64,000 nucleotides of DNA from positions 4,099,092 through 4,163,091 of the forward strand of contig NZ_SIRP01000001.1 of the NCBI RefSeq assembly GCF_011634835.1. Reading direction: 5' to 3'. Made by a program: the position numbers and the translations under genes. Origin of the DNA: Isoptericola sp. BMS4. GTDB taxonomy: Bacteria > Actinomycetota > Actinomycetes > Actinomycetales > Cellulomonadaceae. Below the pieces are notes generated by a model that did not search any database, was not told the origin of the DNA, and saw only the letters and a program-made list of their open reading frames with translations. Positions 12,002 to 64,000 of the stretch are shown here, piece after piece. Positions within the stretch are counted from its first letter, which is position 1. Every line of letters starts with the position of its first letter.

Positions 12002-12037
12002 CAGGCCGGCTCCGCCCCCCAGGGCGGGGCCGGCCTG
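12002..12037. terminator. GC-rich hairpin between convergent genes (candidate bidirectional terminator)
   Basis: CAGGCCGGCTCCGCCCC-cca-GGGGCGGGGCCGGCCTG, about 17-bp arms, lying between the PA14 gene stop and the VOC gene stop. Confidence 0.4.
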
Positions 12038-12063
12038 AGTGTCGACCGGCCGTTCCCGCCCTG

Positions 12064-12140
12064 ATCAGCGCGGCAGTTCCGGATCCGGGCGGCAGTTCGA
12101 ACTGCCGCTCAGATACTGAGCTGCCGACGCGATCCGGGCC
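12064..12140. repeat. Intergenic repeat family B, copy 1 (contains the perfect palindrome GGCAGTTCGAACTGCC)
   Basis: About 80% identical over roughly 72 bp to 42596-42672. Both copies sit directly 3' of a plus-strand gene. Confidence 0.5.
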
Positions 12141-12168
12141 GAATCGGCCGCCCCACCCGCCGGTGGCG

Positions 12169-21588: not shown

Positions 21589-22233
21589 CGGAGGTCCTTC
21601 CGGGCGGGCGCCGGGTGCGGCGCCGGAGAGGGCAGGCAGGGTGAGAGGGTCAGGAAGTGAGGCGGCGGCCACGGCCATCAGCTCGAGCCGGCGAGGAACA
21701 GGGTCCCGGGCGGACCGGGGCGACGACGACGTCGTCTGGGCACGATGCCGGTGAGGTCAGTCGAGCTCGCACATTCGACCCGCGGACACCGCGCGACAGC
21801 ACATCGCGCCGCGACGGCAGGTGCGCGCGGTCGTCGGTGCGGCGGGAGCGGTGCGGGGCATGGCCCCACAGGACCATCCGCGATCGACCTTCGCCAAGCG
21901 GGACGCCCGGGAATCTCGCTATGCGAGCCAAAATGCGTCCGCATCGCGAGAAGTGTGGCGTGGGCCACTCTCAGGGACGCAAAGGACCCCTCGCGCACCC
22001 ACCAGAGCTCACCTACCCTTGCTGCCTTCCGGCCCTGGGGGAGTTCGGCGAGATGATGCCGCACGAGGGGTCTGCCACCAGCCTAACCGAGACCCGCGCC
22101 GAGGAGAAAACCCGCGCCGCGCGCGGCGTCCCCGAGCGCGCCCGACCTGCCGATTTCCAGCCACCGGCCACCGTCCGGTAGGCTTCTGGGGCTGCCAGCG
22201 CACCGTTCTCGACGACGGGCGCCGGCTGCTCCA

Positions 22234-22318
22234 GGAGGATTCGCCTAGCGGCCTATGGCGCACGCTTGGAAAGCGTGTTGGGTTCACGCCCTCGGGGGTT
22301 CGAATCCCCCATCCTCCG
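22234..22318 (+). tRNA. tRNA-Ser (anticodon GGA)
   Basis: Acceptor stem GGAGGAT/ATCCTCC, 3-bp D-stem, anticodon loop TTGGAAA, long variable arm (class II), T-arm GGGGGTTCGAATCCCCC, discriminator G. CCA is not encoded. Confidence 0.85.
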
Positions 22319-22323
22319 CCGCA

Positions 22324-22376: not shown

Positions 22377-22463
22377 GATGCCGAACATGGCCCCCCTCGA
22401 TGCCGAACATGTGGTTGGTCCGGAACTCGGGGTTCCAGATCCGGACCAACCACATGTTCGGCA
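22377..22463. repeat. Palindromic repeat family A, copy 1 (24-bp perfect arms TGCCGAACATGTGGTTGGTCCGGA / TCCGGACCAACCACATGTTCGGCA with a 15-nt spacer, plus a partial extra arm)
   Basis: Perfect inverted repeat; related copies lie at 23301-23380 and 36464-36549. Confidence 0.6.
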
Positions 22464-23296: not shown

Positions 23297-23300
23297 ACCC

Positions 23301-23380
23301 ACCATGCCCTCCCTCGACGCCGACCATGTGGTAGAGCAGGCATTCCGTCCCTGAGTCCCTGATCAACCACATGTTCGGCA
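23301..23380. repeat. Palindromic repeat family A, copy 2 (degenerate left arm)
   Basis: ACCATGCCCTCCCTCGACGCCGACCATGTGGT...TGATCAACCACATGTTCGGCA, starting immediately after the methyltransferase stop. Confidence 0.5.
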
Positions 23381-36463: not shown

Positions 36464-36549
36464 CTTCTCCGGCACCCCTGTGGTGCCGAACATGTGGTTG
36501 ATCCCGTTCTCGGCAACTCGATCCCGGACCAACCACATGTTCGGCAGCG
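36464..36549. repeat. Palindromic repeat family A, copy 3
   Basis: TGCCGAACATGTGGTTGATCCCG-(15 nt)-TCCCGGACCAACCACATGTTCGGCA, in a divergent intergenic region. Confidence 0.6.
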
Positions 36550-41545: not shown

Positions 41546-41881
41546 GAGGTCGGGGAGGGAATGCGGCTGTGGCATCCTGCGTTGTGCAGGACGCCGCCGG
41601 GACCTCCGGCGGCCACAGACACGCAACGTACGTGCTCCGGGGTCGGTGAGATTCCGAGCCGGCGGTGACAGCCCGCGACCCGCGCCTCCTCCGCGAGGCC
41701 GGTTGACCTGGTGGAACTCCAGGGCCGACGGTCAGAGTCCGGATGGGAGGAAGCACGTGCGGCACGCGCCCGGCGACGGGTGGGTGCCGCCGGGCGCCGT
41801 GTCGCCGGCGAGGGCCCCGCGCTCCCGGCGGACGGCCGCCCCTCACCCCGGCAGCCGCTCGACGGACCGGGAGAGTGAACG

Positions 41882-42595: not shown

Positions 42596-42672
42596 CATCA
42601 GCGCGGCAGTCCGGGATCCGATCGGCAGTCGGAACTGCCGCGCCGATCCGGACATGCCGACGCGATCGTCAC
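42596..42672. repeat. Intergenic repeat family B, copy 2 (GGCAGTCGGAACTGCC variant)
   Basis: About 80% identity to 12064-12140; it lies directly 3' of pnuC. Confidence 0.5.
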
Positions 42673-44812: not shown

Positions 44813-44890
44813 CTCACCTTCGAGGTCGAGGTGCGGGCTCGAGGTCGAGGTGCGGGACCTCGACCTCGAGCCCTCACCTCGACCTCGCGC
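44813..44890. promoter_or_regulatory. Long imperfect palindrome / tandem (GAGGTCGAGGTGCGGG)x2 in the divergent promoter region between the acyl-CoA dehydrogenase and NUDIX genes
   Basis: CTCGAGGTCGAGGTGCGGG repeated twice, then its near-complement CCTCGACCTCGAGCCCTCACCTCGACCTCG. Confidence 0.35.
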
Positions 44891-44913
44891 CCTGGCCCCG
44901 GCACGATGAGGCG

Positions 44914-52262: not shown

Positions 52263-53852
52263 ATGCAGAGTGCAACGTGGGGTGCCGGGGGGCGCCCCCG
52301 GGGCAGGCCGCGGTGGACACGTGCCACCTCGCTCGTGGTCGCGATGGGGGTCGCGGGCACGATGGTCGGCCCGACCGGCGCGATGCCCGCCGCCGGTCTC
52401 GAGACAACGCAGGTCATACGGTCGCACGGCGCCGTCGCGCACCAGGTCCCCGCGGACCCGCACGTCGATCGGCCCGGCCCGGAGAAGCGTCCGGACGGAC
52501 GGCCCGCGCCCGGCGAGGGACGCCGCGACCGGTCGGAGCGTCCCGGCGAGCACGCGCCGCGCCCGGGCCCCGAGACCACCGACAAGACCACCGACGAGAC
52601 CCGGGTCGTGGACGCCGCGTCGCCGGTGCCGGCCGGCGGCGCGTCGCGCATCCGCTCCTCGGGATGGCGCCCGAAGGCCGACGTCTCGCTCTCGCTCGTC
52701 GGGCCGGACGGCGGCCCCGTCGGCGGTGCGGTGGCCGTGACCGCGAACGCGGAGGGCCGCGTCACGGGCCACGTCACGGTCCCGGTGCCCGCCGGCGCCG
52801 CCGCGGGCGCGTACACCGTGGTCGGCACCGACGAGGACGGCGGTTCCGCGACGGCGCGGATCGACGTGTACGCCCCGTCGCTGGAGGCCACGTCCCCGGT
52901 CCCCGCCGCGGGCCGCACCGGGATCGCCTCGGGCGGCTGGAGGGCGGCGTCCGACGTCACGCTGCGGCTGGCCGACCTCGACGGCAACCCCGCCGGAGAC
53001 CCGACGACCGTGACGACCGACGAGGACGGCGACGTCCCGGCCGGCACCGTCCTCGCCGTCCCCGCCGTGCCGGCGGGAACGACCCTGACGGTCGTCGCCC
53101 GCGACGACGCCGGGGCACGGGTCACGGACGAGGTCACGGTGATCGCGGCCAACGACCCGGTGGTCGACGTGTCGTCGCCGGTGCCGGCCGGCGGCGAGAT
53201 CCCGGTGACGTCCTCGGGATGGCCCGGCGAGACCGACCTCGTGCTGCGGCTGGCGGACGCTGCGGGAGCTGCCGCCGGCGACCCGGTGACCGTGACGACG
53301 GACGCGGACGGCACCGTCCCGGCCGGCACCACCGTTCCCGTGCCGGCCGGCACCGTGGCGGGCGTCCACACGCTGACGGCCGCCGACGGCGCCGGCCGCA
53401 CCGTGTCCGACGAGCTGCGGGTCTACGCGCCGTCCCTGGAGGTCGAGCCGTCGGACGACCCGGACGCGTGCGCCCGGGTCGCGTCGAGCGGCTGGCTCCC
53501 GAGGTCCGAGGTCACCCTGCGGGCGACCTCCACCGACGGGGCACGCCAGGGCGCCCCGACCACCGCGACCGCCGACGAGGACGGGACGCTGACCGACGTG
53601 TGCGCACCCGTGCCCGACGACGTGCCGCGGGACGACGTCACCGTCGTCGCCGTCGACGACGAGGGCGGGCGCGCCACGACCACACCGGCCGCGGACCCGA
53701 TGTCGGGCACACCGGCGCGGACGGTCGGGGCCGGGCTCGAGGTGGGCGACGGTGCCCGCTCGGCCGGCACGCCCGTCGCGGTGCTCACGCTCGTGGTCGA
53801 CGCCGCGACGCTCGTCGCGGCCCGGCTCGCGTCCCTCTTCCCCACCGGATAG
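52263..53852 (+). CDS. Secreted repeat protein with four ~88-aa tandem Ig-like modules (SPVPAGG...SSGW...)
   Basis: Signal peptide LVVAMGVAGTMVGPTGA; four internal repeats; C-terminal hydrophobic segment. Confidence 0.6.
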   Translation: MQSATWGAGGRPRGRPRWTRATSLVVAMGVAGTMVGPTGAMPAAGLETTQVIRSHGAVAHQVPADPHVDRPGPEKRPDGRPAPGEGRRDRSERPGEHAPRPGPETTDKTTDETRVVDAASPVPAGGASRIRSSGWRPKADVSLSLVGPDGGPVGGAVAVTANAEGRVTGHVTVPVPAGAAAGAYTVVGTDEDGGSATARIDVYAPSLEATSPVPAAGRTGIASGGWRAASDVTLRLADLDGNPAGDPTTVTTDEDGDVPAGTVLAVPAVPAGTTLTVVARDDAGARVTDEVTVIAANDPVVDVSSPVPAGGEIPVTSSGWPGETDLVLRLADAAGAAAGDPVTVTTDADGTVPAGTTVPVPAGTVAGVHTLTAADGAGRTVSDELRVYAPSLEVEPSDDPDACARVASSGWLPRSEVTLRATSTDGARQGAPTTATADEDGTLTDVCAPVPDDVPRDDVTVVAVDDEGGRATTTPAADPMSGTPARTVGAGLEVGDGARSAGTPVAVLTLVVDAATLVAARLASLFPTG

Positions 53853-54023
53853 CGGACGGCGGCAGCCCGGAGAACGGTCGCCCGCGGCCCGTCGCCGCCG
53901 TTCTCCGGGTCCCGCCGCGGGCGGCGGCCGGGACGTCCGGGCCGCCGTTCCGGCGCGCCCCGGACCGCGATCGCGCTGGTGGGACCGCGATCCTCAGTTC
54001 GTGATCAAAATGTGACGAACCCC

Positions 54024-54052
54024 TGGACACGGCCGTCGGGAGTTGCGATAGT
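54024..54052 (+). promoter_or_regulatory. Candidate promoter TGGACA-N17-GATAGT (copy 2)
   Basis: See 52154-52182. The shared string GGAGTTGCGATAGT sits 72-81 bp upstream of the two ATGs. Confidence 0.4.
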
Positions 54053-54123
54053 TCCCCCAGGGCCCCTTTTCCGGCACTTCGGACTCGGGGCCTTGATCTC
54101 TGAAATACCACCAGGGGGGAAGT

Positions 54124-55838
54124 ATGCAGAGGAAAGTACGCAGCCTGAAGCGGTCACAGACCGTTCTGGCAGGTGTCGCGATGGGGGTCGCGGGCACCAT
54201 GGTCGCCTCGACGGGGGTCGCGTTCGCCGACACCGTCGACGTCGACCCGCAGGGCTCCGCGGGCGTCGAGGCCGACGCCCTCGCCTCGGACCTGCTGGGC
54301 ACCGCCCTGGCCGGGGCGGACGACTCGGAGAAGGCCGGGGCCGCCGCGAGCGTCTTCGGTTCGAGCCTGCTCGGCAAGGACGTCGCCGGACTCGCGCAGT
54401 CGGAGGCGACGTTCCCGTCGAACCCCGGCCCGAACACGGCCGACCTCGACGTCGAGGCGCTCGGCGACAAGAGCATCAGCGTCGACGGTGTCGACGTCCC
54501 GCTCGACCAGATCATCGACTTCGGCCAGCTGGGCGCGCTGCAGAGCGAGTCCACGGCGACCGACGAGCTCAACACCGAGGCGATCTCCGGCCTGCTGGGC
54601 GCCGACGGCGCCATCACGCTCGACGGCGAGGACGGCGACTTCGGCGCCGCCGAGATCGACCTGCTCTCGCTCTTCGACGAGCTCGAGGTCAACTCGCTGA
54701 CCGACGGCGTCGTCGACGAGGCGACGCTCCGGCTCGGTGCGGGCGGCGCGCGCGTCGTCACCGAGGACGGCGAGTTCGTCGACCCGGACGGCGTGGGTGG
54801 TCCCGGCGAGTACCGCGTCGGCGAGGCGAGCGCCATCGCGCACTCGCCGCTCATCGAGCAGGCCGCCGGCCAGCTCTACGACGCGATCGGCACCTACGAG
54901 AAGCAGCTCGTGGGCAAGGTCAACGAGCTGATCGACACCACGGCGATCACCGGCACCCTGCCGGCCGGCGTGGACCTCAGCGAGACGTGGATCGAGTCGG
55001 ACATCCAGGACAAGGTGTTCGCCGCCGTCCTGGACGAGCCGATCACGACGAAGAACAAGTTCCTCACGATCGACTTCTCGACGGGGACCGCGACGATCCA
55101 CCTCGACCAGCTGCTCTCGGGCGAGCTGCGTCCGGGCCAGCCGACGGGTCTCAACGCGCAGAACCCGAACACGGAGCTCATCGACGACGAGATCTACCCG
55201 ATGATCGCCGAGAGGCGCAGAACCCGAACACGGAGCTCATCGACGACGAGATCTACCCGATGATCGCCGAGAGCGTGCACGACGCCATGAACGAGGCGAC
55301 GCACATCGCGCTCGGTGCGGTCGAGGGCGCGCTCGAGAGCGTCACGATCCACTTCGTCGCGGACGTCACTACGCCGCTGCTCGGCAACGCCACCGCCAAG
55401 TGGGACGTCAACCTCATGAGCGGTGACCTCACCAACGTCACCTGCGAGGGCGAGGGCCTCCTCGGTGGTCTGGGCTGCACGACGCTGAAGACCACGGTGA
55501 GCACGCTGGGCCCGGTCGTCGAGACGGCGCTCGTCCCGGCGCGCGACTTCGTGCTCGGCGACGGCGGTCAGCAGCTCTTCGACACGCTGATCGGCGACAT
55601 CAAGACCGGCGCCATCACGGTGCCGGTGCGTCAGGCGCTGGAGCCGTTCATCGAGCAGGTCGCCCAGGTCGTCTCGGTGCAGGTGAACCACCAGGCGACG
55701 CAGACGTGCACGGCGGACGACGGTTCGGAGCGGACCAGCGGTCTGCAGGTCTCGGCGCTCAGCGTCGGCCTCGTGCCGGCCTCGGACGCCGGGCGGCTCA
55801 ACCTCGGCAACGCCGGGGCGAGCATCACCGCCTGCTGA
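54124..55838 (+). pseudogene. Secreted protein gene disrupted by a perfect 59-bp tandem duplication that shifts the frame
   Basis: ORF 54124..55263 and ORF 53979..55838 both encode the peptide QNPNTELIDDEIYPMIAE in different frames. Removing one 59-bp copy gives a single 551-aa ORF. Signal peptide VLAGVAMGVAGTMVASTGVAFA. Confidence 0.6.
55156..55273 (+). repeat. Perfect 59-bp direct tandem duplication (2 x GCGCAGAACCCGAACACGGAGCTCATCGACGACGAGATCTACCCGATGATCGCCGAGAG)
   Basis: Read directly from the sequence: 55156-55214 equals 55215-55273. Confidence 0.85.
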
Positions 55839-56025
55839 TGCGCGACCGTCGCGCCGGGCACCGGCGCGACCCGCACTGACGCGGGCGTGACCGTGCGGCA
55901 CCACCGCCCGGTCACCCGCACGGAGAACGGCGGTCCGGTACGTCCGGGCCGCCGTTCTCGCGTTGCGCGTCCGCCGTCGTCACGCCCACCATCTCGCCAC
56001 ATATCTCGCCACGTTCGGAGCAAGC

Positions 56026-57548: not shown

Positions 57549-59084
57549 GTGGAGGGGTTCTTTGCCGCCGTCGGCGGTGCAGGGCTGGCCGTGGGCATCG
57601 TGGTGCTGGTCGCCGTCGCGGCGGTCGTCGCGCTGGTCGTCATGCTCGTGATGCGCGCCTGGTACAAGGTCGCGCGAGCCGACGAGGCGCTCGTGATCGT
57701 GGGGCGCAAGCGGCGCAGGTCGGACGGGCCGACGGCGAGCTTCTCGGTGATCCGGGGCGGCGGCGCGGTCGTCAACCCGATCACGCAGCGCGCGGAGACG
57801 CTGTCGCTGCGGGCGCGCCAGATCATGGTGCAGCCGACCGCGCAGTCGATCCAGGGCGTCACCGTGGACGTCACCGGGGTGGCGCTCGTGAAGGTCGGCT
57901 CGGACGACCAGTCGATCGCCCGGGCGGCCGAGCGTTTCGTGTCGCAGGACAACGCGATCGAGGTGTTCACCACCGAGCAGCTCGAGGGCGCCCTGCGCGG
58001 CGTCGTCGCGACCCTGTCGGTCGAGCAGCTCATGCGCGACCGGCAGGAGCTGTCCGACCAGATCGCGACGCTCATCAAGAGCGACCTGGCGGAGCAGGGC
58101 CTCGTGCTCGACAGCTTCCAGATCCAGGGCATCACCGACGCGAACGGCTACGTGCACGCGCTGGGCGCCGAGGAGGTCTCGAAGGTCAAGCGTCAGGCGG
58201 AGATCGCCCGCATCGACGCCGAGCGGCAGATCAAGGCGCGCGAGATCTCGACCAGCGAGGAGACGCTGATCGAGCAGACGCAGTACGACAAGAACCAGGC
58301 GGCGGCCGCGTCCGACGTCGGCGAGGCGCGCGCCGAGGCCGAGCAGGCGGAGGCGCTCGCACGGGCCCGCGCCGAGCAGGGCGTCCTCATGCAGCAGGCC
58401 GAGAACCGCCAGGCCCAGCTCGACGCGGACGTCAAGCGTGTCGCCGACGCCGCGCAGTACGAGGAGCAGAAGAAGGCCGACGCCCGCGCGTACGCGCGGA
58501 TGAAGGACGCCGAGGCGGCGGCCGAGGTGCAGCGCCGCGAGGCCGACATCAACGAGTACGAGCGGCAGAAGAAGGCCGACGCGGACGCGTACGCCCAGGT
58601 CAAGGCGGCGGAGGCGGAGGCCCGCAAGGCCCAGCGCGAGGCCGAGGCGACCCGACTGCAGGCGGAGGCCGAGGCGGACGCCGCCCGAGCGCGGGCGCAG
58701 GCGGAGGCCGACGCGATCCGCCTGGCCGGCGAGGCGAAGGCCGCGGCGATCGAGGCCGAGGCCGAGGCACTCATGAAGAACCAGGAGGCGGTGCTCGCGC
58801 AGCGGTCGCTCGACGTGCTGGTGCCGATGATGACGGAGTTCGCCAAGGGGTACGGGAACGTCGGCAACGTCATGGTGCTCTCGGGCTCCGGCGAGAGCGG
58901 CGCGTCGTCGCACATGGCGGGCGAGGCCGCGATGGGCATGCGCGCCATGTTCGACACCGTGCGCGAGGCGACCGGCATCGACCTGTCCAGCGTGATCCAG
59001 GGCAACGCCGTGGGGCGGGGCATCGCCAACGCTCAGCAGGGACCGGCCGAGCCGGAGCGCCCGGTGGACCCGACCGACAACTGA
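57549..59084 (+). CDS. Flotillin / SPFH (band 7) domain protein
   Basis: N-terminal transmembrane helix, SPFH domain, and a long Ala/Glu-rich coiled coil (AEAEQAEALARARAEQ...). GTG start after GGGAGAGGGAG. Confidence 0.85.
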   Translation: MEGFFAAVGGAGLAVGIVVLVAVAAVVALVVMLVMRAWYKVARADEALVIVGRKRRRSDGPTASFSVIRGGGAVVNPITQRAETLSLRARQIMVQPTAQSIQGVTVDVTGVALVKVGSDDQSIARAAERFVSQDNAIEVFTTEQLEGALRGVVATLSVEQLMRDRQELSDQIATLIKSDLAEQGLVLDSFQIQGITDANGYVHALGAEEVSKVKRQAEIARIDAERQIKAREISTSEETLIEQTQYDKNQAAAASDVGEARAEAEQAEALARARAEQGVLMQQAENRQAQLDADVKRVADAAQYEEQKKADARAYARMKDAEAAAEVQRREADINEYERQKKADADAYAQVKAAEAEARKAQREAEATRLQAEAEADAARARAQAEADAIRLAGEAKAAAIEAEAEALMKNQEAVLAQRSLDVLVPMMTEFAKGYGNVGNVMVLSGSGESGASSHMAGEAAMGMRAMFDTVREATGIDLSSVIQGNAVGRGIANAQQGPAEPERPVDPTDN

Positions 59085-63869: not shown

Positions 63870-63915
63870 GATTCGAGCCCCTGACCGGCGTTTGCGCTGG
63901 TCAGGGGCTCGAATC
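63870..63915. terminator. Perfect 17-bp-arm hairpin GATTCGAGCCCCTGACC-(11 nt)-GGTCAGGGGCTCGAATC
   Basis: A strong inverted repeat with no adjacent gene inside the window. Confidence 0.3.
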
Positions 63916-63938: not shown

Positions 63939-64000
63939 GTGTCCAGTCTCAGGACATCGGAATGGGGTGTCTCAAGACATCGGCATAGCGTGTCTCGAGT
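63939..64000. repeat. Tandem operator-like repeats GTCTCA(R)GACATCGG at the window edge
   Basis: TGTCCAGTCTCAGGACATCGG ... TGTCTCAAGACATCGG ... TGTCTCGAG. Motif related to the PadR-operator palindromes at 48824-48862. Confidence 0.35.

Follow-up and report, generated by a model that had tools for sequence, protein, structure and literature searches.

A gene for a putatively secreted protein of the choice-of-anchor G family in Isoptericola sp. BMS4 is interrupted by a perfect tandem duplication of 59 bp, and the second copy of the repeated unit is probably a join artefact of the deposited BMS4 assembly that is not present in the DNA of the organism. This assessment draws on the duplication itself, on its absence in relatives, on the recurrence of its junction in a diverged paralog, as read from the protein sequence of the latter, and on its place within a block of DNA that the paralogs share. 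The gene lies in a stretch of 64 kb that was analysed as a whole (64,000 nucleotides, referred to here as the window), and all positions are given in the numbering of this stretch. The elements of the split gene are as follows:

54124..55838, + strand: the whole gene, which minus one 59-mer encodes a 551-aa choice-of-anchor G family protein
54124..55263, + strand: 5' ORF of 379 aa, with a putative signal peptide (by inspection), the choice-of-anchor G / DUF8394 domain and a 16-aa out-of-frame tail
55260..55838, + strand: 3' ORF of 192 aa, NCBI WP_166851094 (P0034), comprising the C-terminal helical and beta part
55156..55214, + strand: copy 1 of the 59-bp unit, read by the 5' ORF as AQNPNTELIDDEIYPMIAE
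55215..55273, + strand: copy 2 of the unit, the same 59 bp as copy 1 and the segment missing in relatives
54024..54052, + strand: candidate sigma-70-like promoter TGGACA-17-GATAGT upstream of the gene, a consensus match only

Direct comparison of 55156-55214 with 55215-55273 shows two identical 59-mers in tandem, and TRF recovers the same array with a period of 59, 2.0 copies, 100% matches and a score of 236, which is the top score of the 64-kb window. The perfect duplication that an earlier note on this DNA had described at these coordinates is thereby borne out. The period-59 identity reaches 0 nt beyond either side of the duplication, and this extension on both sides revealed no microhomology at the junction of copy 1 with copy 2 (GAGAG followed by GCGCAG). 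The 64-kb window holds no further occurrence of the 59-mer, no second perfect 2.0-copy duplication of such kind and no other exact dispersed repeats of at least 35 nt.

Since 59 equals 3n+2, the insertion leads to a premature stop after 16 out-of-frame codons. The 379-aa 5' ORF ends with ...AQNPNTELIDDEIYPMIAE from copy 1 and continues into RRRTRTRSSSTTRSTR, the reading of copy 2 in this frame, with the stop codon falling inside copy 2. In the frame of the 3' ORF, copy 2 encodes the conserved peptide, and the long ORF 53979-55838 reads it as AQNPNTELIDDEIYPMIAESVHD... in this other frame. The ORF geometry thus agrees with the earlier reading that the same peptide is encoded twice in different frames, with the 5' part stopping at 55263, and deletion of one 59-mer in silico gives the 551-aa ORF that had been proposed for the collapsed gene. 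The duplication also gives rise to an ATGA at 55260-55263, so that the annotated 3' ORF starts at an ATG overlapping the TGA that ends the 5' ORF; the arrangement looks like a junction for translational coupling and has probably arisen by chance.

The two halves of the split gene are annotated by NCBI as separate proteins in Isoptericola sp. BMS4, the 5' half in a version of 360 aa (WP_166851092, P0032); the 379-aa product of the 5' ORF is 100% identical to the database entry P0002. For the promoter candidate at 54024..54052, one site was found where 0.0 were expected in shuffles. The collapsed protein belongs to the NCBIfam family NF033766, which it matches with an E-value of 5e-37 and 128.4 bits (cutoff 45) over aa 71-352, corresponding to profile positions 3-283 of 283. 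The Pfam annotation PF28433 (DUF8394) is precomputed for P0002 and all homologs, and a Pfam scan of the collapsed protein run in this analysis matched no family. Its N-terminus, MQRKVRSLKRSQTVLAGVAMGVAGTMVASTGVAFA followed by DT, displays a basic n-region, a hydrophobic core and an AFA motif, judged by inspection only, and would accordingly represent a putative Sec-type signal peptide of the collapsed 551-aa protein. An alignment of 21 homologs identifies the duplicated peptide (aa 345-363) as the most conserved motif of the family, the invariant residues being N344, Q346, P348, N349, E351, Y358 and P359. In an AlphaFold model of moderate confidence (pLDDT 76, pTM 0.69; aa 1-55 of low confidence), the duplicated peptide is modelled as a loop entering a long helix formed by aa 357-386. 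A Foldseek comparison of the model with the PDB returned no similar solved structure (best E 0.08, TM <0.1), and a literature search returned no paper mentioning Isoptericola BMS4 or choice-of-anchor G.

In the closest relatives the gene is intact and carries the unit once. The 90%-identity cluster of the truncated BMS4 protein includes a member of 551 aa (P0033), whose gene is present in two independent assemblies of reads from Logan, L009 (SRR31240230) and L010 (SRR35255292). These assemblies stem from relatives at ~95% DNA identity and not from strain BMS4 itself; they are 92.6-96% identical to the DNA of the window and match it in their gene neighbours, namely a 525-aa upstream gene, a copper amine oxidase and a flotillin. 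The copper amine oxidase of the window is the gene downstream of the split gene:

Downstream gene: copper amine oxidase, WP_166851098 (NCBI annotation)

Both assemblies contain one copy of the unit: aligned with them, the window is longer by exactly 59 bases, the unit itself is identical at 59/59 positions, and BLAST aligns the single 59-mer of the relatives to both copies of the window. P0033 and the collapsed protein share 539/551 residues (98%) without gaps. The earlier note had expected intact orthologs of about 551 aa, and the closest orthologs are exactly 551 aa long with a single copy. A more distant syntenic ortholog of 532 aa (P0001, 76% identical), located on the JGI metagenome contig L012, likewise carries one copy. 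Each of the 21 aligned homologs, the 98%-identical ortholog among them, is one uninterrupted protein, and in the sets of 31 and 92 homologs retrieved, truncation at the site of the duplication is confined to the two BMS4 proteins. The neighbouring genes of the window are intact compared with the relatives. Between the 3' half of the split gene and that of the relative we counted 14 synonymous and 3 non-synonymous codon differences and no indels. The 3' half is thus without decay after the frameshift, which would make a real duplication a very recent one, as the earlier note had held.

BMS4 encodes a second choice-of-anchor G protein (P0010, WP_166851360, 362 aa), which is 64% identical to the first and is located on the same contig outside the 64-kb window. 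It ends with ...LRPDQPTGLNAQNPNTELIDDEIYPMIAERRRTRTRSSSTTRSTR, a frameshift tail as in the split gene: the 16-residue out-of-frame tail (...LNAQNPNTELIDDEIYPMIAERRRTRTRSSSTTRSTR) is common to P0010, whose C-terminal frameshift tail reads ...YPMIAERRRTRTRSSSTTRSTR, and to the 379-aa 5' ORF. Because of this identical tail, the gene of P0010 appears, judging from its protein sequence, to contain this duplication as well, with an identical junction. If copy 2 of the P0010 gene encodes the conserved peptide, its sequence is determined at 47/49 positions up to the stop, every one of which agrees with the window. P0010 is 87.6% identical to the N-terminal part of a 1140-aa protein of L012, here called A-type, whose gene sits just upstream of the P0001 ortholog. 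A search with the C-terminal half of the window's protein found only P0034, and a search with the C-terminal part of the L012 A-type protein found from BMS4 only P0039, the product of the window's upstream gene. The downstream half of the paralog may be unannotated, or it may be identical to P0034 and share its accession.

The gene upstream of the split gene (52263-53852, + strand; 529 aa, WP_166851089) encodes a signal peptide that resembles those of the choice-of-anchor G paralogs, and its segment 52338-52378 is 90% identical to 54175-54215. It is without the DUF8394 domain, and its similarity to the A-type protein is limited to the SSGW / MG2-like repeats at the C-terminus of the latter. 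In L012 its position is occupied by the 1140-aa A-type gene, while L010 keeps a 525-aa version; by its sequence, WP_166851089 looks like an internal-deletion derivative. A near-same G+C-rich hairpin (…GGCGG(C/T)CCGG(G/T)ACGTCCGGGCCGCCGTTC…) lies 3' of the upstream gene at 53920-53951 and 3' of the split gene at 55925-55957. The two hairpins are probably a shared terminator left from a tandem-paralog origin; the terminator scan missed both because they have no T-run.

The repeated unit occupies a particular place within the DNA that the paralogs have in common. The 59-mer is strongly conserved across genera at the DNA level (49-58/59 bases). When this gene is compared with the A-type paralog of L012, a proxy for the DNA of the BMS4 paralog on which the predicted block boundaries are based, the longest near-exact shared block spans 65 nt (positions 1030-1094 of the collapsed gene) and consists of the 59-mer with 3 nt on each side (3+59+3). 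The single mismatch of this block, at unit position 18, is ruled out for the BMS4 paralog by its tail. By our own calculation, the chance that a random 59-bp duplication would fit into the 65-nt block is ~7/1656 (~0.4%). The paralogs in L012 differ at 1/59 unit positions; position 18 of the unit is G in both BMS4 genes and C in both L012 genes, a sequence pattern that might hint at concerted evolution of the block. That an identical junction free of microhomology arose twice independently is not credible. As the junction is shared by genes of 64% identity and lies on their longest shared block, the process behind it must be driven by the identity of the paralogs.

The simplest process of this kind would be a technical one, an unmerged join of contigs. 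The gene and its diverged paralog would share one short identical block, the most conserved motif of the family, and graph-based contigs would stop at it, with the left and the right contig end both holding most of the block. If these ends were concatenated without merging, the shared part would be doubled in perfect tandem, and the same unmerged join at both paralogs would yield the same duplication twice. For an overlap o and a block of length L, the duplicated unit would comprise 2o-L bases and lie centrally in the block; an overlap of o=62 (k=63) with L=65, for example, would result in a unit of 59 flanked on either side by 3 bases that stay single. Both the concatenation and the numbers for k and L are inferred here, and the true gene would then encode an intact 551-aa secreted choice-of-anchor G protein. 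Unmerged contig overlaps produce perfect tandem duplications.

Of the options raised by the earlier note, namely pseudogenisation, a slippage switch and an artefact, we favour the artefact as the most likely because the paralog has the same junction and the unit coincides with the longest shared block, while the slippage switch has lost its footing. Further features expected of an artefact are present: the array consists of two perfect copies, exactly two units without divergence; the unit lies on a sequence that is repeated elsewhere in the genome, where, judging from the protein sequence, the other copy is likewise duplicated; and the independent assemblies of relatives at ~95% DNA identity are one-copy. 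As the Polypolish paper documents, repeats make short-read steps unreliable, and polishing can itself add structural errors (PMC8812927). A literature search on overlap-join duplications returned eukaryotic genome papers only, which were of little use. Against an artefact stands the single 4.32-Mb contig of BMS4, which suggests long reads; a long-read consensus would not break at a 65-bp repeat. Since long reads span such a repeat, the artefact requires a pipeline with short-read graph contigs or manual joins. The assembly is also otherwise clean here, with intact neighbours and no second such duplication in the window. A scan of JGI metagenomes gave 0 matches to the junction, and the one-copy control also gave 0 although L012 has this pattern twice, so that nothing follows from the empty result.

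The main rival to the artefact is a real, very recent duplication of 59 bp in one paralog that was copied to the other by gene conversion via the shared block. This course of events, which we consider unlikely, would likewise give the same junction in both paralogs, and it is in keeping with the undecayed 3' half, as well as with the near-identity of the paralogs across the unit within each genome, which hints at concerted evolution of the block; moreover, the single-contig genome may derive from long reads, which would not create an artefact of this sort. It needs, however, two rare events fixed in one clone, namely a microhomology-free duplication confined precisely to a block of 65 nt in a gene of 1.66 kb, followed by a conversion through less than ~65 bp of homology between genes that are only 64% identical in protein, and the duplication occurs in no other strain or homolog examined. 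Both surface proteins would be inactivated, and losing one copy would restore the gene, making the duplication a reversible null allele. Perfect tandem repeats of ~59-bp size delete readily, so the two-copy state would be short-lived unless the loss of both proteins were selected. If both duplications were real, by gene conversion or by a staggered cut, they could constitute a homology-coupled, reversible on/off switch of several genes, an outcome that we regard as quite improbable.

The identical, microhomology-free junctions at two loci sharing sequence would also be explained by an independent origin in both paralogs, if a sequence-specific enzyme had nicked the two strands of the conserved block 59 nt apart and the overhangs had then been filled in and end-joined. 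Ku/LigD end-joining is present in many actinobacteria, which lends this mechanism some support; nevertheless no enzyme or mobile element is in evidence, inspection of the two boundaries revealed no common or symmetric motif, and no other genome among the homologs retrieved bears the footprint, leaving such an origin with very little to recommend it. A mixed scenario, in which a duplication that is real at one locus was spread to the other by a read-mapping or polishing step, accords with the sharing of the unit by both loci and with the unreliability of short-read alignment in repeats and the errors of polishers (PMC8812927). Junction-spanning reads would carry locus-specific flanks and should, however, map correctly, and we therefore hold this scenario to be highly unlikely.

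A functional split, finally, would take the form either of a programmed -1 frameshift, yielding the full-length protein with a 20-residue insertion, or of two ATGA-coupled proteins. A -1 shift anywhere in 55215-55263 would indeed restore the frame, and the 3' ORF begins with an ATG that shares bases with the stop of the 5' ORF; yet the 3' half is without a signal peptide, and the continuity of the 21/21 aligned homologs, including the 98%-identical ortholog, makes a functional split scarcely conceivable. Programmed -1 frameshifting was rejected as no X XXY YYZ slippery heptamer occurs in 55150-55263. The fold of 55126-55303 is no better than that of shuffles (z = -0.09, DNA parameters); structure-driven slippage was rejected on this basis, and a stable downstream structure for a -1 frameshift was not found in the same segment. 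The slippage hotspot for on/off switching suggested by the earlier note is unsupported, since no other homolog is truncated here and there is neither microhomology nor a fold-prone structure. Copy number does not vary at the site either, all other homologs retrieved being single-copy.

The window contains several other repeats and RNA features. The RNA elements, all of them ordinary, are:

41629-41759, + strand: FMN riboswitch (89 bits)
21979-22075, - strand: small SRP RNA (69 bits)
22234-22320, + strand: tRNA-Ser(GGA)

An element of ~83 nt with inverted termini (GCCGAACATGTGGTTGG … CCAACCACATGTTCGGCA) is present in three copies (22381-22463, 23298-23380 and 36464-36546) and is reminiscent of small intergenic repeats of the MITE-like or palindromic type; two of its copies are located just downstream of tRNA-Ser and SRP RNA. 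A second palindromic repeat family (ATCAGCGCGGCAGT…GAACTGCCGC…) is found at 12034-12163 and 42597-42667, its copies being 83% identical and one of them a 69-nt palindrome by itself. At 44820-44893, a 19-nt unit TCGAGGTCGAGGTGCGGGC occurs twice and is followed by two copies of its near-complement, the whole forming a palindrome of ~74 nt that closely precedes an ATG near 44905. Close to the end of the window, a 23-nt unit of lower G+C content (GTCTCAAGACATCGGAATAGCGT) is repeated in 2-3 tandem copies at 63946-63996 (TRF 2.2), the array being cut by the window end and preceded by a strong hairpin near 63880-63915; these could be operator or iteron-like sites. The flotillin/SPFH gene at 57549-59081 contains imperfect in-frame repeats of 33 nt and 99 nt at 58443-58743, which encode an Ala/Glu/Lys-rich, coiled-coil-like segment.

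If the duplication is an artefact of the assembly, WP_166851092 and WP_166851094, as well as WP_166851360, probably do not exist in their annotated, truncated or split form; the three RefSeq proteins of BMS4 would probably be truncation products of an assembly error, and the real gene probably encodes an ordinary intact 551-aa choice-of-anchor G protein. Truncated BMS4 forms already serve as cluster representatives in protein databases. As representative of the 90%-identity cluster, the 379-aa product masks the intact P0033 (551 aa), so that homology searches with the C-terminal half miss P0033. A perfect 2.0-copy duplication centred on a block shared by paralogs, with an identical junction at both loci, offers a cheap flag for join artefacts in other deposited genomes that needs no sequencing reads. 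If the duplication is real, it would show how a reversible null allele can pass between diverged paralogs for surface proteins by gene conversion, and would imply no new kind of mechanism.

In relation to known systems, the protein shares with the choice-of-anchor G family (NF033766; PF28433, DUF8394) the domain, which is matched end to end; its N-terminus would be a putative signal peptide (by inspection). Within this family, C-terminal MG2-like repeats and an LPXTG-type anchor are present in some relatives and absent from others; the deposited BMS4 gene differs from them in being split just past the end of the domain model (aa 352). With phase-variable contingency loci it has in common that the gene encodes a surface or secreted protein, that the repeat unit is not a multiple of 3 and that unit loss restores the frame. 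Such loci, however, consist of many units of 1-10 nt that vary among strains, whereas here a single 59-bp unit is doubled and the other homologs recovered show no variation at the site. Frameshift pseudogenes that result from spontaneous short tandem duplication likewise exhibit an insertion (here of 59 bp), a premature stop and an intact ortholog in relatives, but they are single-locus and usually bounded by microhomology, while in BMS4 the paralog shares the junction and microhomology is lacking. False tandem duplications from unmerged contig ends have as their defining mark a lack of junction-spanning reads. The BMS4 duplication agrees with them in its two perfect copies, amounting to exactly 2.0 units without microhomology, in the position of the unit on a genome-repeated sequence whose other copy is duplicated too, and in its absence from independent assemblies of relatives together with the undecayed state of the interrupted gene.
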